Positions 10,572 to 63,525 are shown, numbered from the stretch's first letter. The stretch: 64,000 nucleotides of DNA from an uncultured Desulfovibrio sp. (GCA_964517635.1 CAZFCC010000010.1:7812-71811), one strand, 5' to 3'. Notes: a model not told the origin generated them from the letters alone. Translations and numbers: made by a program.

Positions 10572-10581
10572 GTGCGCCTCC

Positions 10582-13740: not shown

Positions 13741-13748
13741 ACTTGGCA

Positions 13749-45194: not shown

Positions 45195-45587
45195 CTAAAT
45201 ATTTTCCGTTACCCAATCCACAACCTGGGCCATACGCTTGAGCGTATAGCGCCGATGAGGGCTTTGCTGGGCCAGATCGTCCAGCGTGCCGTCCAGGCGG
45301 TAGATGCGCCAATCACCCTCGGGCAGGGCGCCTTTTTCCATTCCCTGAGTGATGGCGCTACGCGCCGCACCAGGCGAACAGAAAAGCTCAAATTCCTGCA
45401 CACCGGGGTCAAGCACCACCTGCGAACCGCTTGCAATGTCTATGATGTAATTGCCCGGAGCAAAAACATAGACAAAGGGGCAAGGTTCCACCGGAAATTC
45501 CTGCTCCGTCTCGGCCGCTGGGCCAGCCTTGACACAGGCCAGCAAGGGCAAGGCCAGCAGTGTAACCAGCAAAAGGCGTGCTTGCAT
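45195..45587 (-). CDS. Small lipoprotein of unknown function
   Basis: Lipobox LLAC; directly downstream of htpX. Confidence 0.7.
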   Translation of the reverse strand: MQARLLLVTLLALPLLACVKAGPAAETEQEFPVEPCPFVYVFAPGNYIIDIASGSQVVLDPGVQEFELFCSPGAARSAITQGMEKGALPEGDWRIYRLDGTLDDLAQQSPHRRYTLKRMAQVVDWVTENI

Positions 45588-45643
45588 TGTCTACCTCAGT
45601 ATGACGGGCGTTCGGCCCGGTTATAGCCGCCTGGGCGACCTTT

Positions 45644-46947: not shown

Positions 46948-48891
46948 TCAAGACGCTGCGCTGTTCCCCTTTCGCGCCTGCCACCAGAGCTGAAAAACCA
47001 GCAAAGTCCAGAGGGGCTTGCGCAGGTCTGCCCTGCCCGAAACATGCTCGTCCACAAGGGCGCGCACGGCGGCAGGTTCAAAAATACCCTGCGCCTTGAG
47101 GCTGTCTGCGCTGAGCAGGTCTTCCACAAGTGGGCGCATGCGCCCGCGCAGCCATTCTGCCACGGGAATCTGAAAGCCCCGCTTGTTGCGATACAGTATT
47201 TCCTTGGGTAGCAGGTCGGCAAAGGCCCGCTTGAGCAGCCACTTGCGCTTGAAGCCGTGCAACTTGCGGTTCACAGGCAGGCGGGCGGCAAATTCGGCCA
47301 CATCCTTGTCCAAAAACGGTGCTCGCACCTCAAGGCTATGCAGCATGGAGCAGCGATCCACCTTGACCAAAATATCGTCCAGCATGAACTGGCGCGCATA
47401 CACATGAAAGGCCCGCGCCAGCGGCGCGGCCGCATTGTGGGGCCGCCAATGCTCATACTGTTGGCGCGTGGGCGCAAAGAGGCGCTCCGGCGCAAGAAAA
47501 CCCGGAGCCTGCGCCTTGAAGGGGGAAGACAAAATCTCGGCCTGCATGTCGGGGGTAAAGGCCGTCAGCATGGTTTGCACGCGCTGCCATGCCGGAGCCT
47601 GCGCCGCGCGCAGAAACGTGGCCACCGCCAGGCGCGGATTGATGTATCCGGCGGACGAAGGCAGGCGGCGGGCCAGAGGCTCCACAAGCTTGCGCCGCAG
47701 CACAAGGGGCAAGGCATTATACCACTCCGCCACCTTAAAACCGATATAATGCTCATACCCGGCCCACAATTCGTCTGCACCGTCGCCGCCCAGGGCCACG
47801 GTGACCTTTTGGCGGGTCACGCCCGAAAGCAGCCAGGTGGGCGCCACCGAAGCGTCCGCCATGGGCACATCCATTTTGCTGATAATGCCGGGCAGATTGT
47901 CGGCGCATTCCTCTGCCGAAAGCACGCGCTCGTTGTGGTCTGTGCCAAAGGCCCCGGCCACGATGCGGGCATAACGCGACTCGTCGTAGCTGGCCTCGGT
48001 AAAGCCTATGGAAAAGGTTTTTATGGGCGAGGACGACTGCCGCGCCATCAGCCCTGCCACAATGGACGAATCAATGCCGCCCGAAAGAAAAACACCCAGG
48101 GGCACATCGCTGACCATGCGACGGCGCACGGCCTGGGCCAGCAGGCCCCGCAGTTCTTCGCAAAGTTCGTCGGTGCTGCGGGAGTCGTTTTCGTCCGGCA
48201 CGGGCATATCCCAATAGCGGCCCATGCGCAGGTTACCGCCTTCGAGCATGAGCCAGTGCGCCGGGGGCAGACTCGCCACTTCATCATACACGGTCTGCGG
48301 CGTGGGCACGTATTCATAAGCCAGATAGCGCATAACGGCTTCGGGGCTCAGGGTCAGGCTCAGCCCCATGCCCTGATCGCGCAGGGTTTCAAGAGCCGTC
48401 AGCTCCGAGGCAAAATGCAGCCTGCCCTGTTGCACCGTATAAAAAAACGGTTTTTTGCCAAAGGGGTCGCGCGCGCAAAAAAGGCGCTGCTCCACGGAAT
48501 CCCACAGGGCGAAGGCAAACATGCCGTTGAAGCGGCCGAGACAATCCACACCCCACAAGCGGTAGGCCTCAAGAATGACCTCTGTGTCCGAATTGGTCTG
48601 AAAGCGCGCTCCGGCGCTGGAAAGCTCTTGCTTCAGCTCCGCAAAATTATACATCTCGCCATTATATGTGATGGAATACCGCCCATCTACACTGTGCATG
48701 GGCTGGGCGCCCGTGCCGAGATCAATAATGGAAAGCCGCCGATGCCCGAGGCACAGCGGCCCGCTCAGCCACTGACCTTGGCCGTCCGGCCCGCGGTGGG
48801 CCAGGCGGTCGGTCATGGCTTGCACCCAGTGGAGGGCCTGTGGGTCAAGGGGCGAGGCGTCCAGTTGGCAAATACCGGCTATTCCACACAT
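46948..48891 (-). CDS. asnB: Glutamine-hydrolysing asparagine synthase-like amidotransferase
   Basis: MCGIAG, HRGPDG, HRRLSIID, NGEMYN, LSGGIDSS, GGDGADE and EVRAPFLD. Confidence 0.93.
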   Translation of the reverse strand: MCGIAGICQLDASPLDPQALHWVQAMTDRLAHRGPDGQGQWLSGPLCLGHRRLSIIDLGTGAQPMHSVDGRYSITYNGEMYNFAELKQELSSAGARFQTNSDTEVILEAYRLWGVDCLGRFNGMFAFALWDSVEQRLFCARDPFGKKPFFYTVQQGRLHFASELTALETLRDQGMGLSLTLSPEAVMRYLAYEYVPTPQTVYDEVASLPPAHWLMLEGGNLRMGRYWDMPVPDENDSRSTDELCEELRGLLAQAVRRRMVSDVPLGVFLSGGIDSSIVAGLMARQSSSPIKTFSIGFTEASYDESRYARIVAGAFGTDHNERVLSAEECADNLPGIISKMDVPMADASVAPTWLLSGVTRQKVTVALGGDGADELWAGYEHYIGFKVAEWYNALPLVLRRKLVEPLARRLPSSAGYINPRLAVATFLRAAQAPAWQRVQTMLTAFTPDMQAEILSSPFKAQAPGFLAPERLFAPTRQQYEHWRPHNAAAPLARAFHVYARQFMLDDILVKVDRCSMLHSLEVRAPFLDKDVAEFAARLPVNRKLHGFKRKWLLKRAFADLLPKEILYRNKRGFQIPVAEWLRGRMRPLVEDLLSADSLKAQGIFEPAAVRALVDEHVSGRADLRKPLWTLLVFQLWWQARKGNSAAS

Positions 48892-50414
48892 GATTCTTTC
48901 CAGCACTTGTAATTATTGGTGAATATGCGGGCCAAACGATCATTGTTGGCTTCAGGATCAAACATCTGGGCTGCCAGCAGCCTGCCATTACGGGCCAGTT
49001 GCGCCGCCAAGGCCCTGTCGCCAGCAAGCTGGGCAATGGCCTCGGCCAGGGCTTTGGCATCTCCCGGGGGAACGGCCAGACCTGTCTTGCCATGGCGCAC
49101 CACCTCGGGCAGGGCGTTGACAGTGGTGCTGACCACGGGCAAGCCGTAGGCCAGCGCCTCGATAACCGTGTTGGGGATGCCGTCGCGGCGGCCCGAGGCG
49201 TGTACCACGCAGGGCGCGGCAAAAATATGGTGCTCCCCGAGCAGCCGGGGCAGTTCATTGTGCGAAATCAGGCCGGGCATGGTCACGTGGCCTTCCAGCT
49301 TGAGCTCCTTGTGCAAACGCATCAGCTCTGCCTGCATGTTGCCAAGGCCCATGGCCTTGCCGCCGCCGCCCGCCAGCGTCAGCCTGAAGTCCAGCCCCTG
49401 TTCGCGCAGAATCCCGCAGGCCCGCAGCAAAACGTCAAAACCCTTGGTAACGTCAAAGCGCCCAAGCGCCAGCAAACGCACGGGCCGGGGCATGGCCTCG
49501 GGCGCGGCAGAAGGCCGGGCTTCTTCCAGGGGCGAAACGAGGCCAGCATAGCCGCCCGAAGCATCGCTCGCAGGCACGGGCGCAGGCCCAGACATAACGG
49601 CAGCTCCAGGCCCGGAGGCTGCAACAAGCGCTGCCCCAGACGCTGTCACAGACGCTGCCACAGACGCTGTCACAGACGCTGTCACAGGCGCTGCACCAGA
49701 CGCTGCCTCCGCGGCGGCTTCGCTTTCGCCCACCAGCGACGGCAGGGTCAGGCCGTTATAAACAAGCTCCACCTTGCCCTTGGCCTGTCCCCTGTCAAAG
49801 CTTTCGATACGCCCCTTGTCGGCGGCATTATTGGCGCGCACAAGAAAGGCCGCGTCCAGTTTGTCGCCAAGATCCGGGTCAGCAGGCTCAAGGTTGTCGC
49901 CCCGCGCGCAGGTGGCAAAGGGCAGCCCGGCAAGACTGCCGGCCACCCAGGCTGCCGTGGCTGTGCCACGCGGCCAGGGGGCGTAAATCATGTCGATGCC
50001 AGCCTCTGTCAAACGACGGGCCAGGTAAACGCCAGCACAAAAGGCCCAAAGATTTTCGCCAAAAGTCTCGATGCTGCGCCAGCGGCGGAACATGGTGCGC
50101 CGGAAAAGCCTTAGCAGGCGCACGGGGCGCGTAAACATCTGCCGCAGCAGTTCCGCCAAAATGACTGGTAGCGCACGCGTGCCCATAGTTATGGTCTCGC
50201 GCGCCACGCTGCGCATTTCTGTGGAACAGTGGCGCAAATTGGGGCCGTACAGGCTGTAAACCGCAACGGGAAGGCGCTGGCGCAGGCCCTGCACCTCGCG
50301 AAATATAAAAGGCTGGGTGAAAAGAGGATACCAGAGCAGCACACAGGCCACATGGGGCAAGCCCGCAGCGAATGGCGGTGGGGTGGATTCTTCGCCTGTT
50401 CTTTTTATTGTCAT
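48879..50414 (-). CDS. GT4 (GT-B) glycosyltransferase with an internal repeat insertion
   Basis: LLWYPLFTQPFIFRE, GRF..TKG, DGIPNTVIEA and PEVV..G..G. Confidence 0.9.
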   Translation of the reverse strand: MTIKRTGEESTPPPFAAGLPHVACVLLWYPLFTQPFIFREVQGLRQRLPVAVYSLYGPNLRHCSTEMRSVARETITMGTRALPVILAELLRQMFTRPVRLLRLFRRTMFRRWRSIETFGENLWAFCAGVYLARRLTEAGIDMIYAPWPRGTATAAWVAGSLAGLPFATCARGDNLEPADPDLGDKLDAAFLVRANNAADKGRIESFDRGQAKGKVELVYNGLTLPSLVGESEAAAEAASGAAPVTASVTASVAASVTASGAALVAASGPGAAVMSGPAPVPASDASGGYAGLVSPLEEARPSAAPEAMPRPVRLLALGRFDVTKGFDVLLRACGILREQGLDFRLTLAGGGGKAMGLGNMQAELMRLHKELKLEGHVTMPGLISHNELPRLLGEHHIFAAPCVVHASGRRDGIPNTVIEALAYGLPVVSTTVNALPEVVRHGKTGLAVPPGDAKALAEAIAQLAGDRALAAQLARNGRLLAAQMFDPEANNDRLARIFTNNYKCWKESCVE

Positions 50415-50598
50415 TGCCTGCTCCTGAGCGTCTGCAAGGGGCAAATCCATAACTTTCTATGTCCGGGCATGTACCTTGTTTCAAAGACAAAATGCCCTAA
50501 GATAATGCGGGATGCAACCAGCGTAGGGCCGTGTGGATTGCGCCGAAGACCACCTGTAAAAATGGAGTGCACCATTGAAACGCGCAACACGGCAACGC

Positions 50599-51624
50599 TT
50601 ATGTGCAACAGGCCCAATCGTTGGGCCCGGCATCTGCGGCCCGGAGCAGACCGCTGCTTTCGGGAGCGGCGGGGCCCAGGGTTTCGCGCAACTGATCCAT
50701 GGTCAGGCAGCGCACGTTCCAGCGGGCCATGAGCCAGTCTGTCCAGGCCTGTATCTTGTTCATGAGCCTGTCCACAGCAGCGGCATCGGGCAGATGCGGC
50801 GCGCCGCCCGGCATCATTTCTGAAGAATGCCAGGTAAGGGACAAAACCCGGCCCCCCCGAGCCACAAACAGCCGGGTTATGGCCTGCATGGCCCATAAGG
50901 GGTGATAGACGGGTAAAAGACTCAATGCACCCCAGTTTTTGAATCCGGGACGCAGGCGCGGCGCAGCGCGGCGCAGCGCGGCGGGCAAACACGGTAAAAG
51001 CGGAGTAACGCTGAGGGGCACTTCAAAAATACGGCCTTCCGGCGTGGATACCCAATACGGATCGCGCGGCGCGTTAAAATGATCCGGCCCGGCCAGCGGG
51101 CTGACCCCACAATGCAGCGGGCGCACCGAGGCGTCTACCAGAATGCCAGCTTGAGCCAGCAGCGGCCAGAGGCTGCGGTGCAAGTCCCAGCGGCCCATGC
51201 GAAACGATGTCAGCGGCGCGCTCTGAAAATCACGCCCGGCAGCCATGAGGGTTGCGAGCTTGGCGGCCATGAGGGGAGCGGGAACCGCGGCGGCAGGAAC
51301 GCTGGCGGCATTGTCGCCAAGGGCGGCGTCGGCATGGGGCCCATCAAGGGTCAGGGGCGGCGTGTTCCAGTGGTGCAAATGCGCGCCGATTTCCGCCCCG
51401 TGGCTGTCGCGGGCATGGGCCAGAGCCTGACGGGAAGGCGCATGGGCGAGCACGCTGTGTGCGCAGAACAGCGTAGGGCGCACCCCCCGCTCGTACAGCG
51501 GGGCAAGGCGCGTGAGGCTGGCGGTATTGGCCATGGAATAGTCCCGGCGGGCGTACTGCCCGCCAAACAGCCCTTCTTCTTCCACATCCAGACTGACAGC
51601 GAGATATATATCCGGACGGCTCAT
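50599..51624 (-). CDS. Polysaccharide deacetylase-like (WalW-type) protein
   Basis: SLDVEEE, EIGAHLH.WNTPP, SFRMGRW and LTWHSSE; ATGA overlap with the upstream GT. Confidence 0.8.
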   Translation of the reverse strand: MSRPDIYLAVSLDVEEEGLFGGQYARRDYSMANTASLTRLAPLYERGVRPTLFCAHSVLAHAPSRQALAHARDSHGAEIGAHLHHWNTPPLTLDGPHADAALGDNAASVPAAAVPAPLMAAKLATLMAAGRDFQSAPLTSFRMGRWDLHRSLWPLLAQAGILVDASVRPLHCGVSPLAGPDHFNAPRDPYWVSTPEGRIFEVPLSVTPLLPCLPAALRRAAPRLRPGFKNWGALSLLPVYHPLWAMQAITRLFVARGGRVLSLTWHSSEMMPGGAPHLPDAAAVDRLMNKIQAWTDWLMARWNVRCLTMDQLRETLGPAAPESSGLLRAADAGPNDWACCT

Positions 51625-52979
51625 GCGCCCTCTTCCGCCGTGCCGCTTGCGGCAAAATTCCGGCCCGAAGCGCTGTGGTCGCTGGGGTGCGCCTCGTCGG
51701 CGCGGGCACATTCCGTTACGTACAAGTCGTAGACGGCCTTAATGTTGCGCTCGGGATCAAAAAGTTTTTCCACCAGGGCGCGCCCCGCCTGGGCCATGCC
51801 CAGGGTGGCCTCCCGGTCAGCAAGCATGCGGCGCACGGCATGGGCCAGCGCGCGCGGATCGCGCTGCTGCACCAGCAGACCGGTTTCGCCGTCAATGATC
51901 ACCTCGGAAATGCCGCACACGTCGGTAGCAATAACCGGCATGCAGTGCGAAAGGGCTTCTATGATCACGTTGGGGATGCCGTCGCGATCGCCATTGGTGT
52001 GAACAACGCTGGGCATGATAAGCATGTCATGATTCAGCATAAAGTCGCAAATTTTATCGTGGGGGATGAAGCCCGGCATGTCCACAACGCCGGCAAGGCC
52101 CAGCTCATCGCGCATTTTTGTCAGCTTGCGCCGCCAGTTGCCGTCTCCCACAAGGGTCAGGGTCACCGGCACGTTTTCACGCCGCAGCCGAGCCATGGCT
52201 GTGAGCAGTTCGGGAAAACCCTTGGTGCGGGCAAAGCGTCCCACAGCCAGCAGGCGATAGGGCGCCCGCATAGGCATGGCGCACTGACCACCGGGCCGAA
52301 ACGTGAGGCTGTTATAGATGGCATGCACCTTGTCTTTGCCCTCAGGCGGACAAAAACTGCGCAGCCATTGCACGTTGGTCTGGTTATTGGTGCGGATAAA
52401 GAGCGCATCGCGAGATTTTTCTCGCAACAGGCCGTCTTCGGGATAAATATCTCCGGCTCGGCCCGTAAAGGCAAAAGGAATGCCAGACATGCGCGAAGCA
52501 ACCCAGGCGGCAGTGGCTGGCCCGTTGGCCCAGGCCGCATGGATCAGCTGCACGCCGTCCTGACGACACTGCTCGGCCAGCAGAAAACCCGCCAGAAAAC
52601 ACCAGACATTTTCGCCTTCGGCCTCAAGATTGCGCATGCGCCGGAAAAAGCCCTCGCGCATGAGCCGCCAAACCTTGCCCGGCTGCTGGCGCAAAGCGCG
52701 CCAAAAGGCGGCCAGAATCCTGCCCGCAGCTTTAAAGCCCATGCGCCGCACTTGCCCGGCGTAGGCGCGCATCTCTTCGCTGCAACCCTTGAGGTTTTCG
52801 CCATACATGCTGTAGGCATACACCGGAAGGCCCCGTTGCATGAGCTGCACAATCTCACGAAATATAAAAGTCTCTGAAGACAAGGGGAACCATAGAAGGA
52901 CGTAGGCGATAACCGGGGGCACTGCCCGCCGGTCGCGCTCTGCTCCCGCTTTTGTGGCGTGGCCACTAATAAAAGACAT
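51621..52979 (-). CDS. GT4 glycosyltransferase (paralog of 48879-50414)
   Basis: LLWFPLSSETFIFRE, GRFARTKG and DGIPNVIIEA. Confidence 0.9.
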   Translation of the reverse strand: MSFISGHATKAGAERDRRAVPPVIAYVLLWFPLSSETFIFREIVQLMQRGLPVYAYSMYGENLKGCSEEMRAYAGQVRRMGFKAAGRILAAFWRALRQQPGKVWRLMREGFFRRMRNLEAEGENVWCFLAGFLLAEQCRQDGVQLIHAAWANGPATAAWVASRMSGIPFAFTGRAGDIYPEDGLLREKSRDALFIRTNNQTNVQWLRSFCPPEGKDKVHAIYNSLTFRPGGQCAMPMRAPYRLLAVGRFARTKGFPELLTAMARLRRENVPVTLTLVGDGNWRRKLTKMRDELGLAGVVDMPGFIPHDKICDFMLNHDMLIMPSVVHTNGDRDGIPNVIIEALSHCMPVIATDVCGISEVIIDGETGLLVQQRDPRALAHAVRRMLADREATLGMAQAGRALVEKLFDPERNIKAVYDLYVTECARADEAHPSDHSASGRNFAASGTAEEGA

Positions 52980-53033
52980 GCTGATCTCCGCAGAAACGAG
53001 AGCCGGGCCATAAGGCCCGGCCGGAGTGTTGTT

Positions 53034-54356
53034 TTATTCGCCCAGGGATTCTTCGGCGTGTTCGCGTTTGTATTTTTCAACAATTGCTTGCGCCTTGGGA
53101 ATCTCTTCTTTCACGGCGTCAAGCGCCGTGCGGATATGCTCTTCCGTATGTGCGGCTGAAAGGAAGAAACGCAGCCTGTCCGTGCCTTCCTTGACTGCAG
53201 GGAAGGTGATGGGCATGACGTAGATGCCGCGTTTGAACAGGGCGTTGGACAAAAAGCCCGCCACCATGGGGTCGCCCACCATAACAGGCACAATGGCATA
53301 GCCCTGGGCCGCGCCCGTATCAAGGCCGATGCTCGAAGCGTATTCCACAAAAAACTTGGAAATGCTCTGCAGCTTGTGCACCCGTTGCGGTTCACGCAGC
53401 ATGATGTCCAGGGCCTTTTGGCAGGCCACGGCAATAACCGGGGGCATGCCCACGCTGAACACAAAGCCCGGCGAACCATATTTGAGAAATTCTATCAGCT
53501 CATGCCGACCGGCGATAAAACCGCCGCAACCGCACATGGACTTGGAGAGCGTGCTCATCCACATGTCCACTTCTGTGGGGTCGATGCCGAAATGCTCGTG
53601 AGCGCCGCGCCCGGTTGCGCCGAGCACGCCCAGCGAGTGGGCCTCGTCAACCAACAACATGCAGTCATACTGCTTTTTCAGCTGAATGATGCGGGGCAGA
53701 TCGGGGATATTGCCGTCCATGCTGAACAGGCCTTCGGTAACGATAATGGCCCGTTTGTGGTCGGCGCGCTTGGCCTTGAGCACTTCTTCAAGAGCGTCGC
53801 AATCGTTGTGATTATACGAGTAGCGCGCTGCATGCGAGAGGCGGGCGCCCTGAACCAACGAGTTGTGGGCCAGGCCGTCATGAAAAATGGCGTCGCGGTG
53901 GCCGAGCAAAAAGCCCAGTGTGGATACGTTGGTGGCGTGGCCGCTGACGTACACGATACTGTCTTCAACACCATACAGGTCGGCAAAGGCGCGCTCCAGC
54001 GCACGGTGGGGCGGGCGCTCGCCGCCCACAAGGCGGCTGGCTCCGGCAGAAGTTCCGTACACGGCGGCAGCTTCGGCGACGACCTCGGTTATTTCCGGAT
54101 GGGCGTTGATATCCAGATAATCGTAGGTGGAAAAGTTCAGATATTCTTTGCCTTCAATAAACGTGGTGGCCTTGGCCGCGCGCTCGTGGCAAAGAAAAAG
54201 AGGATTTTCCATCCCCATCTTGGCTCCCATCTCCACAAGCCGGTCGAAGGCGAGCTTGGAACGCATGCGACTAAAGCCGCTGGCGGAGCTTTCAGTGGCG
54301 GCAGCGGTTGTTGATGCCGCCTCTTTTCCGGCCTGACAGGAATGGTCTTTCTTCAT
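53034..54356 (-). CDS. PLP-dependent alpha-oxoamine synthase (WcbT/RkpG-like)
   Basis: NFSTYDYL, GTSAGASRLVGGERP, VSGHATNV, DEAHSLG and TLSK. Confidence 0.88.
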   Translation of the reverse strand: MKKDHSCQAGKEAASTTAAATESSASGFSRMRSKLAFDRLVEMGAKMGMENPLFLCHERAAKATTFIEGKEYLNFSTYDYLDINAHPEITEVVAEAAAVYGTSAGASRLVGGERPPHRALERAFADLYGVEDSIVYVSGHATNVSTLGFLLGHRDAIFHDGLAHNSLVQGARLSHAARYSYNHNDCDALEEVLKAKRADHKRAIIVTEGLFSMDGNIPDLPRIIQLKKQYDCMLLVDEAHSLGVLGATGRGAHEHFGIDPTEVDMWMSTLSKSMCGCGGFIAGRHELIEFLKYGSPGFVFSVGMPPVIAVACQKALDIMLREPQRVHKLQSISKFFVEYASSIGLDTGAAQGYAIVPVMVGDPMVAGFLSNALFKRGIYVMPITFPAVKEGTDRLRFFLSAAHTEEHIRTALDAVKEEIPKAQAIVEKYKREHAEESLGE

Positions 54357-54688
54357 GCCTTGTCCTCTTAAATTTGTCCAAAAAACGCGCCAATTCGCAC
54401 CCTGCAGCAAGCCGCCGGGCACTGAGCGCAACTTTGTAAGGATCTAGTATAGCCAATGCGCGGAAGTATGGCAAGTGCGGAATAACAAATACACGGCAGG
54501 CCGCAAAAGCGGCTACCGGCAAGGCATCAGGGTGCTGCGGCCGTTTTGTTGCGCGCTTTTCCTATGCGTAGTTACGGCTGCTCTTCTGGACAAGCACTAC
54601 GATATACCCTAACATAAGACTCTTAGCCGATCTGGGCCACGGTTCGGCCCCTTTTTTGACCAACCGCGCTCCACAGGCTTAAAACTAT

Positions 54689-57600
54689 ATGCAGCAAGAC
54701 CCTGCTCCTCAATACGGCGACTGTCGTATAACACAAAGCACCGCTCTTCCCGGCGGCCTGCTGGCCGTGCCTCTTCCGAGCATCGCGTTTTCATGCCCCG
54801 CTCCGGAAGGCTCCAACCTCGACCAGCAAGATTCCTCTGCGGTCGACATCAGTGCCCAGGATATGGTTCAACTGTGTTTCAAGTGGCTTACACACATTGA
54901 AACTCCCGGGCCTGTCCTGCTCTGGCTTTGCTGGCACGAGCAAAACACCCCCGCCCCGCTGGCCCTGCCTCTGGTGCTGGCTCTTCAGGGGCTGCAAAAT
55001 CTCTGGCGCATCGGGCCCATCCGCTTCCAGTGCGAACCCTTTATGCCCGGCCAGATGTTGGAGGCTGAAAAACTCCTGCGCGACATGCCGCAGCACGGCG
55101 AAAGCACAGTAGAAGCCCCCAACGGCAAGCCCACAAAAACGCCGCTGCGCTCCCCTTCGGGCGCCGATCAGATTATGCGGCCCGTGACAGGACGCGTGCC
55201 GACCATTCTTTTGCTGAACTTTACGAGCGATGAAGAAAGCAGGCTGCATTGCCATCCGCTGTTGCTGCGCTTGCCGGCGCTCACTCCGCCCTGCTGCGAC
55301 ACGCTCATGTGCCGCAAAAGCCCGCCCCGCATCGCTCCGGAGGAAAAAACGCCTGCGCCTGCGCCGCACACGAGCCAACCGCAGCCCACGGTGAACGCCA
55401 TGGCCATGCCTGCGCCGCACACGAGCCAGCCGCAGCCCACGGTGAACGCCATGGCCATGCCTGCGCCCGGCGCTTGCGGCGTCTCTGGTGTTCCCGGCAT
55501 CCCCGGTATCCCCGGCATCCCCGGCGCCTGTGCAGATCCCCACACTCCCGACGCATACGCAGCACCTGGAGAGATTTTTCTTGACGGTGTGCGCTATACG
55601 GAACTTCCTCAGGACGGCCTACTCTGGCGCATAGGCGCCGTCAACCCCCTATGGCGTCAGGAATTGCTCGTGCTGCCGCACAATCCCGACGCTGCCGCCC
55701 TCGCGGCCCTGGAGCCGCGCGGCCTGTGGCTGGCCCCTGTTCAAACGCCGCCGCCCCTGGCCGTCATGTGCTGCGGGCTGGGTTCGGTCTGGCCGGGCAT
55801 GGGCCGCGAACTGTACGACAGTTTCCCCGTTGCGCGCGCGGCCATGGATCGCATCGCCGCCGTGGCTGACTGGGACGTGCTTGGCCTTATGGACGAAAAG
55901 GATGTGGAAAAAATCAGCCTTACCCGCTGGCAGTCGCCCTACCTTTTCATGCTCGAATTTGCGCAGTGGAGCGTGCTTTCTTCTCTGGGCCTGCGGCCTT
56001 CGCTCTTTTGTGGCCACAGCTTGGGCGAGATTATCGCCCTCTGCCTCAGCGGCATCGTTGAGCCCGAGGCGGCCTGGTACATGCTCGACACCCGCGCTGT
56101 GCACATGGCCGAACTGGAAGCCGCAGCCACGCGCGAAACAGGCATGATGGCCGTCCACGCCAACATTGAAGTCGTTGAAGAAATCCGCGCAACCTGGCCG
56201 TCGCTCTACGTATCCAACTATAATACGCCCCAACAGTTCATCCTCAGCGGCCCGCGCGAGGCCCTGCAAGAAGCCCGCAAAAGCCTGCGCAAGCGGCGTA
56301 TACCGGCCATTGTGCTCAACGTGAGCCTGGCTTTTCACCATCCGAGCATGCGCGTGTTGCGCGATCTTTCGCAGCGCCGCCTCAATGCCCTGGAAATGCA
56401 CGCGCCGAACATCCCCATACTGAGCTGTATCACCACCGACTTTTACCCCAACGACCAGCCCTCCATTTGCCAGCACATGACTGATCTGGATGAAAACTCC
56501 GTGCGCTGGACAGAATGCGTGCATGCCATGTGGAACAGAGACGGCATCCGCCACTTTGTCGAACTGGGGCCGCAGGATACCATTTGCGGGCTCACTCGTG
56601 ACAACGAATCCCGGGCCCTGTGCCTGCCAGCCGGGCGCAAGGGCAAAGAAGTCGAGGGCATGCGCCAGACATGCGCCCGCCTCTACTCCCTGGGGCATCT
56701 GCGCGATGATTCCATCCGCGCGCGCGTTACCTCTATGCGTGAGGGGCGTGATGCCGCGGCTGCCGCACGCGCGCCGCTGCCCCACTGCGGCCTTATACCC
56801 GTCGGAACCCCAGACGCCGCCTGCCCCGTAGAAAGCGTCGCCCCAATGGTGCCCGACGCCCAAACACCGACGCCACTTGAAACACAGACCAACGCCCAAA
56901 CACAGGCCGATGCCCCTTCAAGCACGACCGACGCGGCCCCCACAGCGGCCAACGATTTTTCCGCCGACGCAGCTCTGCGCGTGGTTATGGACGTGCTGTC
57001 CCGCGCCAGCGGGCGGGCAGTGGAAGACCTGCGCCCTGAAATGGATCTGCGCTATGACCTGGCCCTGCGCTCCAGCCGTTTCCCCCTCATCATTCAGGAA
57101 GTGGAAAAAGCGCTGGATATTATCGTCAACTTTGAAGATCTGCTTAAAGTTTCGACCATAGGCGATCTGGCGCGCATTCTGGGCGGCAATCCCCTTGCCA
57201 GCAACGAACAGGAACGCACGGCGGCAGGCGCAAGCTCTTTCAGCCGGGCGGCCAGCGCCTGCGCCCCTTTATGCCGATTCGCGCCACTGCTGCGGCCCTG
57301 GCCGGAAGAAGACGCTCCGGCGCAAGCGAGCACTCCGGCGCAAACGAGCACCCCGGCTGAAGCCAGCATTCCGGCACAAGCCAGTGCAATCCTTGCAAAA
57401 AGTGCCCCAGCCCAGTTACCGCTGGATCCCTGTGGCCAAGGGCTGCCCATACACATGGGCGATGTGCTGGCCCTGCTCTTTTTCGAGCCAGAGCTTTTAC
57501 CTGCGCTCATGAGCGGACTCGCGCCGCTGGGCTGCGTGTTGGGCGTGCCCAAAGATCAGCTTGAAGCCTGCGCGCCCCTGGCCAAGGCCGGTTCGCGCCT

Positions 57601-59170
57601 TGTGCCCCTTGACCTGCGCATACGCACGCCCCAAAGCGCCACAGAGGCGCTGGCCCTTGCCGACGAAACCCGTATGGCCCTTGATGCCTTAGCCCGCAAC
57701 GAAGGCCGCATAGACGGACTTGTCTTTACGCCCGCCGTCATCGCAAAGGCCAACGGAACCGCATGCGGCCCGGCCGCTTCCGATGCCGAATTTGCCGCCG
57801 CCCGCATGCCCGAGGTGCTGGATGCCGCCATGCGGGCCGCCCTGAGCCATGGCCTGCGCCATGCCTGCCTGTGCAGCCTCATGCTGCCTGCGCAGGAAAA
57901 TATGTATTGCGACGGCCCGCTGGAAAAACACCTTGAAGCCCTTGGCCAAGAGTCGGGCATAGCCGTGCGTGCCGTGCGCCTGCTTGAACCCACCCTGCGC
58001 GCCGGGCTCAACGAATGGGGCGACCTGCTGGCCCGCGAACTGCTGCTTGGCACGGCAGAGCATGTGTTCTGGGCACGCCACAACACCCTGCCGACCATGC
58101 ACACACCAGGCCACCGGGCGGATCATCCCGGCGCAAGCGCGGGACATTCCCCCACAGGCTCGGGCCTGGCCCTGATCGAGCGGCCCCGCCGCTACCCCCT
58201 GGTTTTTCCCGATCCGCGCCCGCCTTACCGCGGCACGGCCACGCTGTTTCAAGGCGGCTGCCATTACTCGCGCTTTGCAGACGCCGACCTGGCCCAGCAC
58301 GGCGGCCAGCCGGGCAATGGCCTTGGCGAAAACACGCCATGGCTGCCGGCCGGCCGCGCCCTTGCGGCCCTGCTGGAGGCATCCAGCCTGTGGTTGCCCT
58401 GGCTTACGGTCACCGGTTTTTCAGATCTGCGCTTTCATGAGCCGCCGCTGTTGCCGCCCGGCCTCACACGCGAATGCCGCCTGACCATGGAGGCCGAACC
58501 CTGGCTCATGCAGGACGGCGTTATGACCCGCATGTGTCGGGGCGAACTGGCTGTGCGCGAAGTCACGCCCAACGGCAGACACTTGGGCCAGTATACCCCC
58601 GTGGCCGGGGGCATGACCCTGCTGGCTGCGAACAATGGGCAGGTTCCCCCCTTGTGGCCGCACGAAGCCCATATTTTTGAAAAAAATGGTGGTTTCGCTG
58701 TTCCCGGTCTGGACACCGAACTTTTTTATGAGGCTCTTGGCCTTGGCGCCCCCTGGCGCATGTTGCGAGATTTTTTGATCTTACCAGAGCACAAATACGC
58801 GGCGCGCCTGAATCCACAGCATACGGCCATTGCCCCCGAGGGCAATAAAGGCTATGCTGATGTTCTGAATGTGGTGGAGGGAATGGTGCAGGCTGCCTGG
58901 CTGGCCATAGCCCAGGGAGCTGAAAATACCAACGCGGACATAGCGGCAGTGGCCCAGGCGGTGCGCTGCTGGCGGTTGCACGCGGCTGGTTTTATCCGAT
59001 TCGGGGCCGAAAGGGGCAAAGGGCCGTGGCATGTGGTGCTGCGCCGTTCCTGGTCGGATTCCCGTCTGTTACGCTTTGACGGCCAGGCCGTTGACGAGCG
59101 TGGCCGTATTTTTCTTACCCTTCATCATCTGGAATTTGACCGGCGGGACCACAAACCCACCGCGCTTTAG
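54689..59170 (+). CDS. PKS/PUFA-synthase-like multidomain protein: AT - ACP-like - degenerate KR - DH; no KS
   Basis: CCGLGSVWPGMG, GHSLGE and SLAFHH (AT); DLALRSS (ACP-like); RIDGLVF; LAQH..P and EGMVQAAW (DH-like); start uncertain. Confidence 0.8.
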   Translation: MQQDPAPQYGDCRITQSTALPGGLLAVPLPSIAFSCPAPEGSNLDQQDSSAVDISAQDMVQLCFKWLTHIETPGPVLLWLCWHEQNTPAPLALPLVLALQGLQNLWRIGPIRFQCEPFMPGQMLEAEKLLRDMPQHGESTVEAPNGKPTKTPLRSPSGADQIMRPVTGRVPTILLLNFTSDEESRLHCHPLLLRLPALTPPCCDTLMCRKSPPRIAPEEKTPAPAPHTSQPQPTVNAMAMPAPHTSQPQPTVNAMAMPAPGACGVSGVPGIPGIPGIPGACADPHTPDAYAAPGEIFLDGVRYTELPQDGLLWRIGAVNPLWRQELLVLPHNPDAAALAALEPRGLWLAPVQTPPPLAVMCCGLGSVWPGMGRELYDSFPVARAAMDRIAAVADWDVLGLMDEKDVEKISLTRWQSPYLFMLEFAQWSVLSSLGLRPSLFCGHSLGEIIALCLSGIVEPEAAWYMLDTRAVHMAELEAAATRETGMMAVHANIEVVEEIRATWPSLYVSNYNTPQQFILSGPREALQEARKSLRKRRIPAIVLNVSLAFHHPSMRVLRDLSQRRLNALEMHAPNIPILSCITTDFYPNDQPSICQHMTDLDENSVRWTECVHAMWNRDGIRHFVELGPQDTICGLTRDNESRALCLPAGRKGKEVEGMRQTCARLYSLGHLRDDSIRARVTSMREGRDAAAAARAPLPHCGLIPVGTPDAACPVESVAPMVPDAQTPTPLETQTNAQTQADAPSSTTDAAPTAANDFSADAALRVVMDVLSRASGRAVEDLRPEMDLRYDLALRSSRFPLIIQEVEKALDIIVNFEDLLKVSTIGDLARILGGNPLASNEQERTAAGASSFSRAASACAPLCRFAPLLRPWPEEDAPAQASTPAQTSTPAEASIPAQASAILAKSAPAQLPLDPCGQGLPIHMGDVLALLFFEPELLPALMSGLAPLGCVLGVPKDQLEACAPLAKAGSRLVPLDLRIRTPQSATEALALADETRMALDALARNEGRIDGLVFTPAVIAKANGTACGPAASDAEFAAARMPEVLDAAMRAALSHGLRHACLCSLMLPAQENMYCDGPLEKHLEALGQESGIAVRAVRLLEPTLRAGLNEWGDLLARELLLGTAEHVFWARHNTLPTMHTPGHRADHPGASAGHSPTGSGLALIERPRRYPLVFPDPRPPYRGTATLFQGGCHYSRFADADLAQHGGQPGNGLGENTPWLPAGRALAALLEASSLWLPWLTVTGFSDLRFHEPPLLPPGLTRECRLTMEAEPWLMQDGVMTRMCRGELAVREVTPNGRHLGQYTPVAGGMTLLAANNGQVPPLWPHEAHIFEKNGGFAVPGLDTELFYEALGLGAPWRMLRDFLILPEHKYAARLNPQHTAIAPEGNKGYADVLNVVEGMVQAAWLAIAQGAENTNADIAAVAQAVRCWRLHAAGFIRFGAERGKGPWHVVLRRSWSDSRLLRFDGQAVDERGRIFLTLHHLEFDRRDHKPTAL

Positions 59171-59240
59171 CGCGTCCTCGCCGCTACAACCGTGACCATA
59201 CACCAACGCGCTGGCCGCGCGAGCCTGTAAAGGGTACCAG

Positions 59241-60707
59241 ATGCCACATAAAGCACGCACTTTTCTTCCAGCACGAACCTGCCTTTCGCTGCTGCTCGTT
59301 CTGACCTTTCTTTTTTCAGCCTGCGCCTCCAACAAGGCGGGGCTCAAATCGCCAGAACTACCCGCCAGACACTGGCTGGAAGAGGCCCCCGGCGTGCCGG
59401 TGGAAAACAAGGGCAAGCTTGAAGCCGCTGTTCCCAATCTTTATGATCCCTCCAAGGTCTTCACTTTTGAAGACTGCGTTTTTCTTACCATCCAGCAGTC
59501 GCCGCTCTTGGTCAACAGCGCAGTAGACCTGGAGATCAAGCGCGTTGCCCTTACCAACGCCGTGTGGAAATACCTGCCCGAACCGCGCATGACCATGCAG
59601 GTCAGCAACAACCTCACGCGGCTTAATATGGACCACAAGGACACCCCCGGCGATTACGGGCGCACAAAACTCAGCGTGGGCTTTTACGCGGCCTTTCCCA
59701 ATCCGGTGGCCACCTATTTTGAACATCAGGTGCAAAAGGCCATGGTCAACCTGGCCATCTCAACCCACCGCAAGGCCGTGGGCGAAGCCATCTACAAGAT
59801 CGCTCAGGCCTATCTACAACTCCAGGCGCAGAAAAGAATCGTCAAAGCCCAGAAAGATATACTGCCCATCGGCAAAGAACTGATTTCCTACTGGCAGCAG
59901 GTGGAGGCCGTTGACGGCCGCCAAGGGGTTTCTCTCAATCTGGCCATGCAGCACCAGCGGGAGCTTGAGCTCATGCTGGAGCAGACCAAGATGAAAGAAA
60001 CCATGCAGCTCACCCAGCTTAAAATTCTGGCGGGTGTGGATCCCCAGCAGCGCCTGGATGTAGACGCCGCCAGCGCCGAAGAGCTTCTGCGCAGCTTCAA
60101 TGGGCGCAAGCTCAAGTGGGACGAGCGCTGGACTACCACCGAAGACGACTTGTTGCTGCGCGGCCAGATCAAGCTGGGCGACTATAACATCATGGTTGCC
60201 TGGGCGCAGTACATCCCCGACATGAGCATTGCCGTCAACAACAATCCGCCGTCCGGTCAGTACCAGCCCGCCAGCGGCAGCGAAGACACCTTTTTGCATC
60301 TGAACTTCAGCTTCCCCCTGCTGGACTGGGGACGCCGTTATCGCGGTGTGCAAACCGCCCGCATGCAAAAGGCGCAGGCTTTTCACGAAATGGCCCGCAA
60401 GCGCACCGACTATTCCAACCGGTGGCTGCAAGCCGAACAAAATGTGGCCCTGGCCGAAACCGAACTCAAGCTGGCGCGCACGCGCTTTGATACGGCGGCC
60501 ATGCAGTTCAAAGAAGCCCACATTTCTTTCAACGAAGGCATAGCCGAACTGCCCGCCGTGGCCGACAGGCAGGAAGCTATGGTGCAGGCCCAGGTGGCCC
60601 TTATCCGCGCCGAGCTGACCTGTGAACTGGCCCAGCTTGAATGGATGTATCTTTCCACGGCGCTTCAGGAACATTTCCTCGGCCTACCCGCCAAAGAGGT
60701 GCTGTAA
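59241..60707 (+). CDS. TolC/OMF-family outer membrane lipoprotein
   Basis: Lipobox FSAC; helical repeats; LNFSFPLLDWG motif. Confidence 0.8.
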   Translation: MPHKARTFLPARTCLSLLLVLTFLFSACASNKAGLKSPELPARHWLEEAPGVPVENKGKLEAAVPNLYDPSKVFTFEDCVFLTIQQSPLLVNSAVDLEIKRVALTNAVWKYLPEPRMTMQVSNNLTRLNMDHKDTPGDYGRTKLSVGFYAAFPNPVATYFEHQVQKAMVNLAISTHRKAVGEAIYKIAQAYLQLQAQKRIVKAQKDILPIGKELISYWQQVEAVDGRQGVSLNLAMQHQRELELMLEQTKMKETMQLTQLKILAGVDPQQRLDVDAASAEELLRSFNGRKLKWDERWTTTEDDLLLRGQIKLGDYNIMVAWAQYIPDMSIAVNNNPPSGQYQPASGSEDTFLHLNFSFPLLDWGRRYRGVQTARMQKAQAFHEMARKRTDYSNRWLQAEQNVALAETELKLARTRFDTAAMQFKEAHISFNEGIAELPAVADRQEAMVQAQVALIRAELTCELAQLEWMYLSTALQEHFLGLPAKEVL

Positions 60708-61651
60708 TGCGAGCCCTTGCCCGTCCATGCTCCCCCAGCGCACGTGGTCTGCTTTTGACGCTGGCCCTGCTGTGCAGCTTGGCTTTTGCCGTTGCCGCCA
60801 CTGCGGCCGAAGGCGGCAAAAGCAGTGTAACCATTCTCACCGGCAAAGTGGTGACCACGGTGACGCGCGCCATCCCCATGCCCTTTAACGGGGTGGTGGA
60901 CGACGTGCTTGTCAAACCAGGCGAAGCAGTTGAAGAAAACGCCCCCCTCATGCGCTACCACCTGCACGAAGACGCCGAGCGCACCTTGCAACGTGAAGTC
61001 ATGCAAGGCCCCGGCACAGAAAGCCTTAAAAGCCAGGTGCTTGACCTTGAGCGCAGGCTGGCCGAAACCATCGCTCAGCGCAACAAGGCGCGCCAGCTTG
61101 CCGCCTCCGGTCTTGGCTCCCGCCAGGCCTCGGGGCGCCTTGAAGAAGACGTGACCTCCTTGCAGCGTCGCATCGAACTCACCAATATTACGATCAAAAA
61201 AGCTGAAAATAGCTTTGCCATTCGCCTGAAAGAGCTGAGCAGCTACTTTGGTCAGGAAATCAAGGAAGGCGAACTTTTGCCTGAAACCCTCACCCTGACC
61301 TCCCCCATCAAGGGCTACGTGCTCTCGCTTGACGCCACTCTCAACCCCGGCACCCTGCTGCAAGCAGGGAGCGTGCCCGTCAGAGTGGGGCAGCTTGACC
61401 CTGTACTGATTCAGGTGCCTGTGTACGAAGCCGAAATCAGCGCCATCTCGGAAGGGGACAAGGTCGCTGTGGAAATTCCCTCGCTCGGCAACAAGGTTTT
61501 TCCCGGCAAAGTAAACGAAATCGCCTGGGTTTCCAGCGACATGAGCGTATCGAATCCGTCGTATTACACGGTAGAGATCACTGTGCCCAACCCTGATCTG
61601 GAACTCAAGCCCGGCTTCAAGGCCGTTGTGCGTTTCGGGGGCGGCAGGTAA
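60707..61651 (+). CDS. Membrane-fusion (HlyD/RND periplasmic adaptor) protein
   Basis: Lipoyl halves GVVDDVLVKPGE and LTSPIKGYV, coiled coil, LKPGF; TAATG overlap with TolC. Confidence 0.85.
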   Translation: MRALARPCSPSARGLLLTLALLCSLAFAVAATAAEGGKSSVTILTGKVVTTVTRAIPMPFNGVVDDVLVKPGEAVEENAPLMRYHLHEDAERTLQREVMQGPGTESLKSQVLDLERRLAETIAQRNKARQLAASGLGSRQASGRLEEDVTSLQRRIELTNITIKKAENSFAIRLKELSSYFGQEIKEGELLPETLTLTSPIKGYVLSLDATLNPGTLLQAGSVPVRVGQLDPVLIQVPVYEAEISAISEGDKVAVEIPSLGNKVFPGKVNEIAWVSSDMSVSNPSYYTVEITVPNPDLELKPGFKAVVRFGGGR

Positions 61652-61660
61652 AGCCCAGGC

Positions 61661-63070
61661 ATGAAGCTCAAGAGCATACCCCGCAGGCTCGGTTACATTC
61701 TGGGCGCGCAATGGACGCGCGACCTGGCGTGGACGGCCTTTACCATTTTGCTGGCCCGCCGCAGCCCAGACATTATGGGCCAGATCGTCTTGGCCCTCAC
61801 CTTTGGCTATTTGGTAAAAACCATTGCCGATGTGGGGCTCAACGATTTCCTGCTGTCCACCTTTGCCCGCCGTGAAGGCCGCCCTCGGGCGCTGCTTGGC
61901 GAGGTCACATGGCTCAAAATTGTGGTGCTGGTGCTGGCTTTGGTCACCACATGGCTCGTCACCGGCTGGCAAGACTACAGCCCGGAACTACGCCTCATTG
62001 TGCTCTGTATCGCTGCGGGCCTCGGCCTTGACGGCGTAAGCGATTCGTTTTTTGCCCTGTGTCAGGCCCGTGGGCGGCAAGATGTCGAAATGCGCATCCG
62101 CGTTCCGTCGGCTCTCATCGGCATAGGCTTTGGCATTGCTTGCGTGATAATGGGCGCACCGCCCATTATCATTGCCCTGTATAAACCCATCGAATCCGTC
62201 CTCTGCATCATTTTCGCGCTGGTGGCGCTAGGGCGCAACCCGCTGGCCGGTGTCGGCAAATCGGGCATGCTCGACCTGGCGCGCCAGATGAAACACGGCC
62301 TTATTTTTACCTGCATGGCTGCCTGCGCCATGTTCTACAACAAGATCAACGTTATTTTTCTCAAGCAATACGGCGGCAATGCCGACGTGGGCGGCTACGG
62401 CGTTGCCTGGGAAACCATCGAGGGCCTGTCGGTGCTGGTGTCCAGCGCCCTCTTGGGCAAAGTCATATTTCCGCTGCTGGCCAGACACTGGCAACAAGAC
62501 AGGGCAGCCTTCAGCCAGTTGGCGGGGCAGACAGCCCGAACCCTGTGGGCGGCGGCCCTGCCCATCATTTTTCTGATCTGTGTGGAAAGCGACCGCTTTT
62601 TACCCTTTATTTATGGGCATAATTACGAAAGTGCCGTTCGGGCCCAGCAACTGCTTACCCCCTGCCTGGCCACTGCCTTTCTGCATAACCTGGCAGCCTA
62701 CGCCATGATAGGCATGCGCCGCCACCGCCTGTTGCTGGCCTTTTATGTAAGCGGGCTTGTGCTCAACATTATCTGCTGCTTTACGCTCATTCCGGGCATG
62801 CCGCTGGAAGGCGCGGCCCTGTCTTTGACCATCACCAAGGTGTGGGTTGCCCTGCTGACCGTGGGCTTTTTCCAATGGGCCGCCCGCCCCATGAGCGCAG
62901 GACAATGGCTGCTCATGCTGGTGACCATTATGGTGAGCCTGGCCCTGTGGCAGATCACTGGCAAGGTAGCTCCGCGCGAAGTGGCCGAGCTTGTGGGGCT
63001 TGTTCCCCTGCTTGCGCTTTTCTGGCGCTGGCGCCCGCCGCCGCCCTTTGAAGCAAAGACCACCCGATAA
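61661..63070 (+). CDS. MOP-superfamily (Wzx-like) flippase
   Basis: About 12-14 TMs; ADVGLN, DVGGYGVA and LEGAALS patterns. Confidence 0.8.
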   Translation: MKLKSIPRRLGYILGAQWTRDLAWTAFTILLARRSPDIMGQIVLALTFGYLVKTIADVGLNDFLLSTFARREGRPRALLGEVTWLKIVVLVLALVTTWLVTGWQDYSPELRLIVLCIAAGLGLDGVSDSFFALCQARGRQDVEMRIRVPSALIGIGFGIACVIMGAPPIIIALYKPIESVLCIIFALVALGRNPLAGVGKSGMLDLARQMKHGLIFTCMAACAMFYNKINVIFLKQYGGNADVGGYGVAWETIEGLSVLVSSALLGKVIFPLLARHWQQDRAAFSQLAGQTARTLWAAALPIIFLICVESDRFLPFIYGHNYESAVRAQQLLTPCLATAFLHNLAAYAMIGMRRHRLLLAFYVSGLVLNIICCFTLIPGMPLEGAALSLTITKVWVALLTVGFFQWAARPMSAGQWLLMLVTIMVSLALWQITGKVAPREVAELVGLVPLLALFWRWRPPPPFEAKTTR

Positions 63071-63446: not shown

Positions 63447-63476
63447 TTGACGCCAACATCATGCTGTGCATACTAT
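63447..63476 (+). promoter_or_regulatory. Possible sigma70 promoter
   Basis: TTGACG-N18-TACTAT, ~50 bp before the ATG at 63526. Confidence 0.5.
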
Positions 63477-63525
63477 GGTGTGCATAGTCCATAAAAAGAC
63501 ATGTAACGAACCCTCAAGGGGCAGT

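Follow-up and report, generated by a model that had tools for sequence, protein, structure and literature searches.

The window considered here is a stretch of 64,000 nucleotides from an uncultured Desulfovibrio sp. (GCA_964517635.1 CAZFCC010000010.1:7812-71811). Positions 46948-63070 carry nine genes in two divergent, tightly packed arms, as read from an open reading frame (ORF) listing together with Pfam and NCBIfam scans. An earlier sequence-only reading of the window had described these nine genes, the two arms and their domains as a candidate glycolipid or lipid-anchored glycan system, and the genes, arms and stated domains are present as it claimed. The features of the locus are as follows.

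46948-48891, minus strand: AsnB-type glutamine-dependent amidotransferase, 647 amino acids (aa) from the ATG giving MCGI (Asn_synthase 6e-106 and GATase_7)
48879-50450, minus strand: family 4 glycosyltransferase 'a' (GT4a), 523 aa (Glycos_transf_1 8e-31)
50599-51624, minus strand: protein with a (beta/alpha)7 deacetylase fold, like that of carbohydrate esterase family 4 (CE4), 341 aa (fold match by AlphaFold2 (AF2) and Foldseek)
51621-52979, minus strand: family 4 glycosyltransferase 'b' (GT4b), 452 aa (Glycos_transf_1 3e-34)
53034-54356, minus strand: alpha-oxoamine synthase (AOS), like SgaB and serine palmitoyltransferase (SPT), 440 aa (Pfam Aminotran_1_2 1e-47)
54357-54688, no strand: divergent intergenic region, 332 bp, with promoter-like sites for both arms
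54689-59170, plus strand: relic polyketide synthase (PKS) module, 1493 aa (acyltransferase (AT) and acyl carrier protein (ACP) by Pfam, ketoreductase (KR) by alignment, dehydratase (DH) by fold)
59241-60707, plus strand: outer-membrane factor (OMF) lipoprotein of the TolC/NodT type, 488 aa (OEP 6e-23; lipobox LFSAC)
~60704-61651, plus strand: membrane fusion protein (MFP), a periplasmic adaptor, ~315 aa (HlyD_D23 2e-17, HlyD_3 1e-12)
61661-63070, plus strand: MOP-superfamily transporter of the PST/Wzx type, 469 aa (Polysacc_synt_3 6e-17, Polysacc_synt 2e-10)

In order of transcription, the leftward arm runs from the AOS through GT4b, the 341-aa CE4-like protein (ORF3) and GT4a to the AsnB-like gene, and the rightward arm from the 1493-aa AT-ACP protein through the OMF lipoprotein and the MFP to the MOP transporter. 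Of the two overlapping junctions noted earlier, that of GT4b with ORF3 is an ATGA (51621-51624) and that of GT4a with the AsnB-like gene extends over 13 nt (48879-48891); the gap between the arms, formerly put at about 330 bp, measures 332 bp. Within this gap there is a sigma-70-like match on the minus strand (54474-54446, 10 of 12 positions) and another on the plus strand (54587-54615, 9 of 12 positions), both of which are consensus matches only. Between the stop of the AOS and the start of GT4b, in a gap of 54 nt, there is also a strong, GC-rich hairpin (53001-53022, minus strand; nine pairs, eight of them G-C), which could be an attenuator or a processing site between the core AOS and the tailoring genes.

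The AOS has intact pyridoxal phosphate motifs (VSGHATN, VDEAHS and STLSKS, with the catalytic Lys, His and Asp), and these are invariant in the AOS family alignment. It is about equally distant from the solved BioF/KBL and SPT structures (matches in the Protein Data Bank (PDB) of ~1e-70 to 1e-47). Assignment to BioF, KBL, SPT or ALAS by hidden Markov model (HMM) score was tried and rejected, every model falling below its cutoff with a similar score. A paralogue of 34% identity elsewhere in the genome is likely to be the BioF of this genome. A scan by AOS pattern yielded a survey set of 80 loci, all from Desulfovibrio or Desulfovibrionaceae, and the proteins of the window were then run against these by tblastn. 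Over these loci the AOS is 70-97% identical to that of the window (median 77%) and is the best-conserved enzyme of the system.

Three further genera of Desulfovibrionaceae carry more distant AOS genes (55-63% identical), each overlapping the 3' end of a type I PKS gene. The PKSs so coupled are fully reducing proteins of 2550-2660 aa with the order KS-AT-DH-(MT)-ER-KR-ACP, where KS is ketosynthase, MT methyltransferase and ER enoylreductase. By similarity and context, the AOS of the window appears to belong with the PKS-ACP-dependent long-chain-base synthases; this placement is one of pairwise identity and gene context within Desulfovibrionaceae.

The 1493-aa protein comprises an N-terminal extension (residues 1-340), an AT (361-628), an ACP (765-830), a degenerate KR (~918-1130) and a DH (~1170-1493). 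The AT, ACP and DH had been recognised in the sequence-only reading, which missed the degenerate KR lying between ACP and DH. The malonyl-type AT motifs (GHSLG, Arg and AFH) and the ACP motif DLxLRSS are at least 90% conserved in the family, and the AT and ACP motifs are nearly invariant across about 90 clusters at 50% identity. Residues ~918-1130 align with the intact KR of the sister protein P0120 at 28%, with the GGGKG and YxxxN motifs gone. Because this region has neither the glycine-rich NADPH motif nor the catalytic Tyr/Asn, the architecture is given as AT-ACP-psiKR-DH. The C-terminal 354 aa have the double-hotdog DH fold of PKSs (AF2 pLDDT 86.5; Foldseek matches to the DH domains of CurJ, CurF and RzxB at E ~1e-13). 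Among 34 sequences the candidate DH residues are His1204 (29/34), an acidic residue at 1397 (31/34) and Gln1401 (31/34). No KS is found in the large protein, as had been claimed earlier. The N-terminal 340 aa were considered as a KS remnant, which is rejected, as they resemble neither the KS of the sister proteins nor any PDB chain. This extension is confined to the eight closest loci and evolves nearly neutrally; between the closest species its nucleotide identity is 74-78% and its amino-acid identity only 57-62%.

Sister loci of otherwise the same gene content encode KS-AT-ACP-KR-DH proteins of 1650-1820 aa, which have a normal KS Cys and a KR detectable by Pfam (P0120, P0260, P0266, P0282 and P0285). 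P0280 stands between the two forms, its KS truncated and its KR weak, and some genomes have lost the psi-KR by deletion and encode AT-ACP-DH proteins of 820-990 aa. Among 1.8 billion representatives searched there are about 90 KS-less clusters at 50% identity and a handful of KS-containing ones, beyond which the next matches are proteins of 2500-2690 aa. Relatives of 2636-2690 aa in the phylum have the PfaA-type order ER-KS-AT-ACP-KR-DH (domain order read in a genome-survey protein), and the NCBIfam model TIGR02813 (PfaA) matches the AT of the window. Across a 401-genome sample of the phylum, no genus but this one has strong matches to the psiKR-DH part. The AT is about 25% identical to those of SgaA-like and fully reducing PKSs. 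None of the genomes examined has an interrupted reading frame. Taken together, the sequences identify the large protein as a maintained relic of a PfaA-order module, in which the AT, the ACP and, less strictly, the DH are under selection. Since the sister loci keep an intact KS, with its active-site Cys, and an intact KR, the module once built or extended a chain.

The inter-domain linkers of the large protein, its N-terminal 340 aa included, also contain in-frame tandem repeats (55357-55467, 51 nt x 2.2; 55493-55525, 9 nt x 3.7; 57315-57381, 18 nt x 3.7), and in GT4a the two Rossmann halves are joined by a low-complexity linker of tandem repeats (12 nt x 7.5 at 49618-49707). The repeats in both proteins suggest ongoing expansion in unconstrained linkers.

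In the export triad, the start of the MFP gene overlaps the stop codon of the OMF gene; the MFP has an N-terminal anchor, and its homologues have YknX-type barrel domains. The MOP transporter occupies the position usual for an ABC or RND pump and is the sole inner-membrane transporter in the operon. It scores 48 bits against Wzx_EPS (NF041871), for which the cutoff is 800. There is no ABC transporter within 46948-63070, the sequence-only reading having noted the lack of one of the Kps type, and no RND or MFS pump gene in the locus. The OMF, MFP and MOP genes are contiguous in every related locus in which the right arm was seen, and the OMF gene always follows the PKS-like gene. The MOP transporter is conserved like the AOS (median identity 76.5%).

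The triad resembles tripartite exporters such as MacAB-TolC, DevBCA-HgdD, EmrAB-TolC and AcrAB-TolC in that an OMF lipoprotein and an MFP stand back to back with overlapping or near-touching junctions, and in the lipoyl, barrel and hairpin parts of its MFP. In contrast to these systems, its inner-membrane partner is a MOP protein of the PST/Wzx type rather than an ABC, RND or MFS protein. To our knowledge, there is no established tripartite system with a MOP-family pump.

Of the tailoring genes, the AsnB-like gene was detected in 57 of the 80 loci. Its product has an intact MCGIAG start, with the Cys nucleophile, and an intact FLSGGIDSS PP-loop. It scores above the cutoff of TIGR01536, and against the nearest NCBIfam model, TIGR03108 (XrtA/PEP-CTERM amidotransferase), it reaches 592 bits where the cutoff is 817. 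A PEP-CTERM/exosortase exopolysaccharide (EPS) system was considered and rejected, as the family matches are all sub-threshold and no exosortase is present in the window region examined. GT4b matches the EpsE-like model NF041876 at 5e-45, under its cutoff, and is retained more widely than GT4a. The weak NCBIfam matches of the GT4 proteins include BshA, MshA and GlcNAc-PG synthase.

The 341-aa protein had been called a deacetylase. A CE4-like fold is indeed predicted for it, but it has no Pfam, NCBIfam or PDB-sequence profile match; the only contact is with DUF3473 (E 0.22), and PF01522 is not matched. Its AF2 model (pLDDT 72.8) matches the CE4 deacetylases 3rxz, 3qbu (HP0310) and 3s6o, the ArnD structure 8t0j and GH57 in Foldseek, at E 1e-7 and with a TM to target of 0.55-0.64. 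The invariant residues are D42, E44-46, H111, H113 and H114, of which D42 and the three His are candidates for an Asp-His-His metal site. The family has 1341 homologues, mostly in Desulfovibrio, under the NCBI name 'glycosyl transferase family 1'. Since the family has no glycosyltransferase domain and has a CE4/ArnD/GH57-like fold, this name misfits and looks like a propagated misannotation.

A paralogue of the CE4-like protein (53% identical) lies in the same genome in a locus resembling a lipopolysaccharide core locus (L011; G000 contig C20, ~1885-14800). This locus contains HldE, a glucokinase, an FtsX/MacB permease, a GT2/GT21-like enzyme, a GT4 enzyme, a phosphodiesterase-like protein and an EamA transporter. 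It also encodes an unusual 650-aa fusion of a MacB-type ABC ATPase and a GT4 domain.

D. falkowii (AOS 97%), D. desulfuricans (90%), D. piger ATCC 29098 (77%) and Candidatus D. kirbyi are among the sources of the 80 surveyed loci. The complete nine-gene layout is present in 27 of the 80; about a dozen have the left arm and no right arm inside ~10 kb, and several more are reduced variants. Where the arms are unlinked, which is the case in about a quarter of the informative genomes, the AT-ACP-DH gene is present elsewhere in 12 of 12 genomes, and in the four such genomes inspected it is followed each time by the OMF, MFP and MOP genes. Homologues of the large protein led to six loci with the same divergent layout, except that one is rearranged yet linked, and the layout is unchanged where the PKS-like protein is only 36-66% identical, the cases at 36-38% included. 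In a 151-genome sample of the family, 11 other genomes have an AOS at least 70% identical, 11 have the PKS-like gene and 10 have both; the exceptions, one AOS-only and one PKS-like-only genome, are both fragmented assemblies. The arms, whose co-conservation the sequence-only reading had made one test of its proposal, are thus found together whether linked or not. The nine-gene arrangement is far beyond chance and recurs across dozens of species, and the two arms are one co-inherited unit.

Not all genes of the unit are equally persistent. D. piger ATCC 29098 has the AOS, GT4b and AsnB-like genes, with the CE4-like gene and GT4a missing, and GT4a is missing in other lineages as well. Some metagenome-assembled genomes (MAGs) have an AOS-AsnB pair amid unrelated genes with no GT4. 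A further group of MAGs has only the AOS and the right arm; in four of these six no close AsnB is found anywhere, with MAG incompleteness as a caveat. The AsnB-like gene was accordingly rejected as a universal core component, subject to that caveat, although it is often the direct neighbour of the AOS, including where GT4s are absent. The remaining median identities to the window proteins are 71% for the AT, 70% for the AsnB-like protein, 69% for the OMF, 68% for GT4b, 63% for the MFP, 58% for the CE4-like protein, 47.5% for the psi-KR and 41% for the DH. These values fit the variants just described, by which AOS, AT-ACP protein, OMF, MFP and MOP transporter make up the minimal unit, while the GT4s, the CE4-like gene and the AsnB-like gene are accessory across the family. 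The glycan part, which had earlier been treated as integral to the system, does not hold as core in view of these variants.

Certain neighbouring genes accompany the locus. An M48 peptidase and a lipoprotein of the DVU2496_C type (45195-46504, minus strand) adjoin the left arm in 33-34 of the 80 loci, and a ferredoxin-like protein with a twin-arginine (TAT) signal (63466-64000, plus strand) adjoins the right arm in the loci fetched via the large protein. These were considered as cluster members and rejected: they are syntenic in the genus and missing from L006, L007 and other variants, and are therefore probably mere neighbours. In reduced variants a gene for a small, 8-stranded outer-membrane beta-barrel (with OMP_b-brl, Opacity and PagL-like matches) stands directly after the AOS or the AOS-AsnB pair (L073, 11568-12272; L098, 13673-14302).

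The closest described chemistry is that of Pseudomonas fluorescens MYb115, in which the iterative PKS SgaA and the serine-specific SPT SgaB make long-chain sphinganines and phosphoglycerol sphingolipids (Peters et al. 2025, PMC12134224). The survey in that work comprises 6101 homologous clusters, mostly from Burkholderia, and includes Sinorhizobium and 17 Desulfovibrio entries (PMC12134224). Such a Burkholderia-dominated set with Sinorhizobium matches the wcbR/wcbT and rkpA/rkpG pairs, to which the sequence-only reading had compared the present locus. In common with SgaA/SgaB/SgaC, acyl chains bound to a carrier derived from a type I PKS would be handed to a dedicated AOS of the SPT/BioF/KBL family, and the AOS relatives in sister Desulfovibrionaceae genera stand directly behind fully reducing PKSs. 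Unlike SgaA, the synthase of the window has the order AT-ACP-KR-DH with a dead KR, no KS and no ER, and its AT is distant, as given above. It is also transcribed divergently from the AOS rather than coupled upstream of it, and there is no short-chain dehydrogenase/reductase (SDR) of the KDSR type (SgaC) in the locus. The locus adds, moreover, an AsnB-like enzyme, two GT4s, a CE4-like protein and the OMF-MFP-MOP exporter. The comparison with wcbR/wcbT and rkpA/rkpG thus stands with respect to the AOS, whose relatives are translationally coupled to fully reducing PKSs. It fails with respect to the PKS-like protein, which is no orthologue of WcbR or SgaA and is a decayed module of PfaA order. By these comparisons the partnership of PKS-like protein and AOS is analogous to SgaA/SgaB and not orthologous to it, the partner being a different and degraded module.

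Full SgaAB-like pairs exist in other Desulfovibrionaceae genera (L021, at G034:C45:62001-82000, L022 and L023). The first of these is accompanied by an SDR, a formyltransferase-like gene, a radical-SAM/SPASM enzyme, GT2 and GT4 enzymes, a homologue of the CE4-like ORF3 and a Wzx, and is itself a candidate for a PKS-sphingolipid glycolipid locus.

With the 'secondary lipid' synthases of the PfaA/HglE type (KS-AT-ACPn-KR-DH) the large protein shares the order AT-ACP-KR-DH, to which the sister forms add the KS. It differs from them in having a single ACP and in having lost the KS and the KR, and no PfaB/C/D or HglC/D/G partners are found among the nine genes or in the flanks. Further, the chain would pass to an AOS and not to a thioesterase or reductase, and a MOP protein replaces the DevCA ABC pump. 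The heterocyst glycolipids offer a parallel in their combination of a PKS lipid, a glycosyltransferase and MFP/TolC export. The GT4s standing beside a protein of metal-dependent deacetylase fold recall MshA/MshB, BshA/BshB, PIG-A/PIG-L and the GT4s of bacterial glycosphingolipids, and by analogy suggest transfer of an N-acetylhexosamine (HexNAc) followed by de-N-acetylation. In contrast to the MshB/BshB/PIG-L logic, the deacetylase here is CE4-like rather than LmbE-like, and these genes are accessory in the family. In contrast to Wzx/Wzy loci, the present locus has only a weakly matching PST/Wzx-type protein, and neither it nor its flanks hold a phosphoglycosyltransferase, Wzy, Wzc or Wza.

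From the above, the locus is read as a self-contained system for the synthesis and export of a PKS-dependent, sphingoid-type amino-lipid, glycosylated and amidated in this genome, with a probability of roughly 45%. The sphingoid-like lipid proposed earlier thus remains the best reading. The malonyl-type AT, whose motifs are conserved, would load the ACP in cis of the relic module. An acyl chain would then be built or parked on this ACP by the housekeeping type II fatty acid synthase (FAS-II) acting in trans together with the retained DH. It is the weakest step of the series: since the KS and KR are lost here, FAS-II enzymes are assumed to have to act in trans. The AOS would next condense the ACP-bound acyl group with an amino acid and release CO2, giving an alpha-amino ketone, the long-chain base. 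These substrates are proposed because the AOS relatives are coupled to fully reducing PKSs, and because of the biochemistry of PfSgaB. GT4b and GT4a would add sugars, probably including at least one HexNAc, which the CE4-like protein may de-N-acetylate, and the AsnB-like enzyme may turn a carboxylate into an amide. The amidation of uronic acids, which the sequence-only reading had assigned to this enzyme, is not favoured, as it stays beside the AOS where no GT4 is adjacent. Finally, the MOP transporter would carry the product over the inner membrane and pass it through the MFP and the OMF to or beyond the outer membrane; this route is proposed because the coupling of the genes is invariant. 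It is tentatively suggested, though on balance doubtful, that the OMF, MFP and MOP proteins form a new class of envelope-spanning tripartite exporter, whose cargo is a polyketide-relic-derived, sphingoid-like amino-lipid put on or released from the cell surface. Such an exporter would concern human-gut Desulfovibrio, namely the D. piger, D. desulfuricans and D. falkowii lineages.

Several observations weigh against the amino-lipid. The locus has no KS, functional KR or ER and no KDSR-type SDR for chain building and 3-keto reduction, so that a long-chain product is deduced rather than encoded in full. For the SDR, the absence applies to 46.9-63.1 kb, the remaining genome not having been searched for one. 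No N-acyltransferase for ceramide formation was seen. As the AT motifs are malonyl-type, malonyl is the only acyl group demonstrably deliverable to the ACP, and the AT itself is remote from those of SgaA-like synthases (just ~25% identity). The DH has a median identity of only 41%, and in 4 of 34 sequences a Cys stands in place of its putative catalytic His.

The main alternative, itself rather unlikely, starts from the lack of a KS and has a small polar metabolite as the product. Malonyl-ACP, perhaps made malonamyl by the AsnB-like enzyme, would be condensed with an amino acid by the AOS, the GT4s may glycosylate the resulting amino-ketone, and the MOP-MFP-OMF proteins would be an efflux pump. 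Consistent with this, most family members have no KS, yet their malonyl-type AT motifs and ACP Ser are at least 90% conserved. The AsnB-like gene, moreover, frequently adjoins the AOS even where GT4s are absent, and was not found in the 20 kb fetched around each of three loci of the fully-reducing-PKS type. MFP-OMF systems usually expel soluble or amphipathic small molecules, and the MOP superfamily includes the MATE drug exporters; the transporter here, however, is of the PST/Wzx type and not of the MATE type. There is also a precedent for the amidation, in that OxyD is understood to convert malonyl to malonamyl. In oxytetracycline biosynthesis, the amidotransferase gene oxyD and oxyP are involved in the supply of the malonamate starter unit (PMC7749508). 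However, the nearest relatives of the AOS outside this cluster type are coupled to fully reducing, long-chain PKSs, and the sister loci retain an active KS, KR and DH. Four MAGs keep the AOS and right arm with no close AsnB, so that the core chemistry would not depend on amidation. A product of this kind, being a beta-keto acid or amide, would in addition be chemically labile.

A conventional surface polysaccharide or capsule, in which the GT4s build an undecaprenyl diphosphate-linked repeat unit that Wzx flips while the AOS and AT-ACP protein make a substituent or a terminal lipid anchor, is considered improbable. Such a role was long proposed for the rkp-1 and wcb regions. The wcbR/rkpA clusters do sit among capsule synthesis and export genes (PMC3908369), and the Wzx-type transporter, the two EpsE/WcaL-like GT4s, the CE4-like protein and an amidotransferase nearest the XrtA/PEP-CTERM EPS type would all fit such a system. 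The wcbR/wcbT-type pair, however, has since been tied not to a capsule anchor but to free sphinganines and phosphoglycerol sphingolipids (PMC12134224). HMM scans show no priming phosphoglycosyltransferase, Wzy, chain-length regulator, Wzc or Wza in the locus or flanks, which argues against an ordinary polysaccharide on undecaprenyl phosphate. The GT4s and the CE4-like gene are, besides, dispensable, whereas the Wzx-type transporter, MFP and OMF are firmly tied to the AT-ACP gene and occur together with the AOS. It is least probable of all, and very much so, that the arms are unrelated neighbours or that the relic PKS gene is a decaying, pseudogene-like passenger. The nearly neutral evolution of the psi-KR and the N-terminal extension, the deletion of the psi-KR in some lineages and the unlinking of the arms in about a quarter of informative genomes would be expected of a passenger, but the arms co-occur in all 12 unlinked genomes, the AT and ACP motifs are near-invariant, and the frame is open in all genomes examined.

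Publications on Desulfovibrio sphingolipids, PKS clusters or aminolipids yielded nothing on the present locus, and the statement that no product of this kind has been described in Desulfovibrio agrees with this. For wcbR/wcbT, the literature search returned gene lists only. PKS-dependent synthesis of sphingolipids in bacteria was itself first shown in 2025 (PMC12134224). Gut-type Desulfovibrio share a cluster that probably makes and exports a glycosylated amino-lipid, and two of its features, the relic module and the OMF-MFP-MOP triad, could each be new. The locus also offers a candidate for a MOP-based tripartite exporter, and a CE4-like family that has no Pfam model and is named a glycosyltransferase by NCBI. 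The decay series from KS-AT-ACP-KR-DH through AT-ACP-psiKR-DH to AT-ACP-DH may illustrate how a PKS module becomes reliant on housekeeping fatty-acid enzymes.

The sphingolipids of gut Bacteroides act on the host. If the amino-lipid reading is true, the locus would bring PKS-dependent sphingolipid chemistry to sulfate reducers associated with the gut, D. piger ATCC 29098 and D. desulfuricans among them, in a modified version that combines a decayed synthase with added sugar and amide tailoring and a dedicated route over both membranes. If the exporter proposal is true as well, these sulfate reducers would have an unrecognised host-facing lipid.

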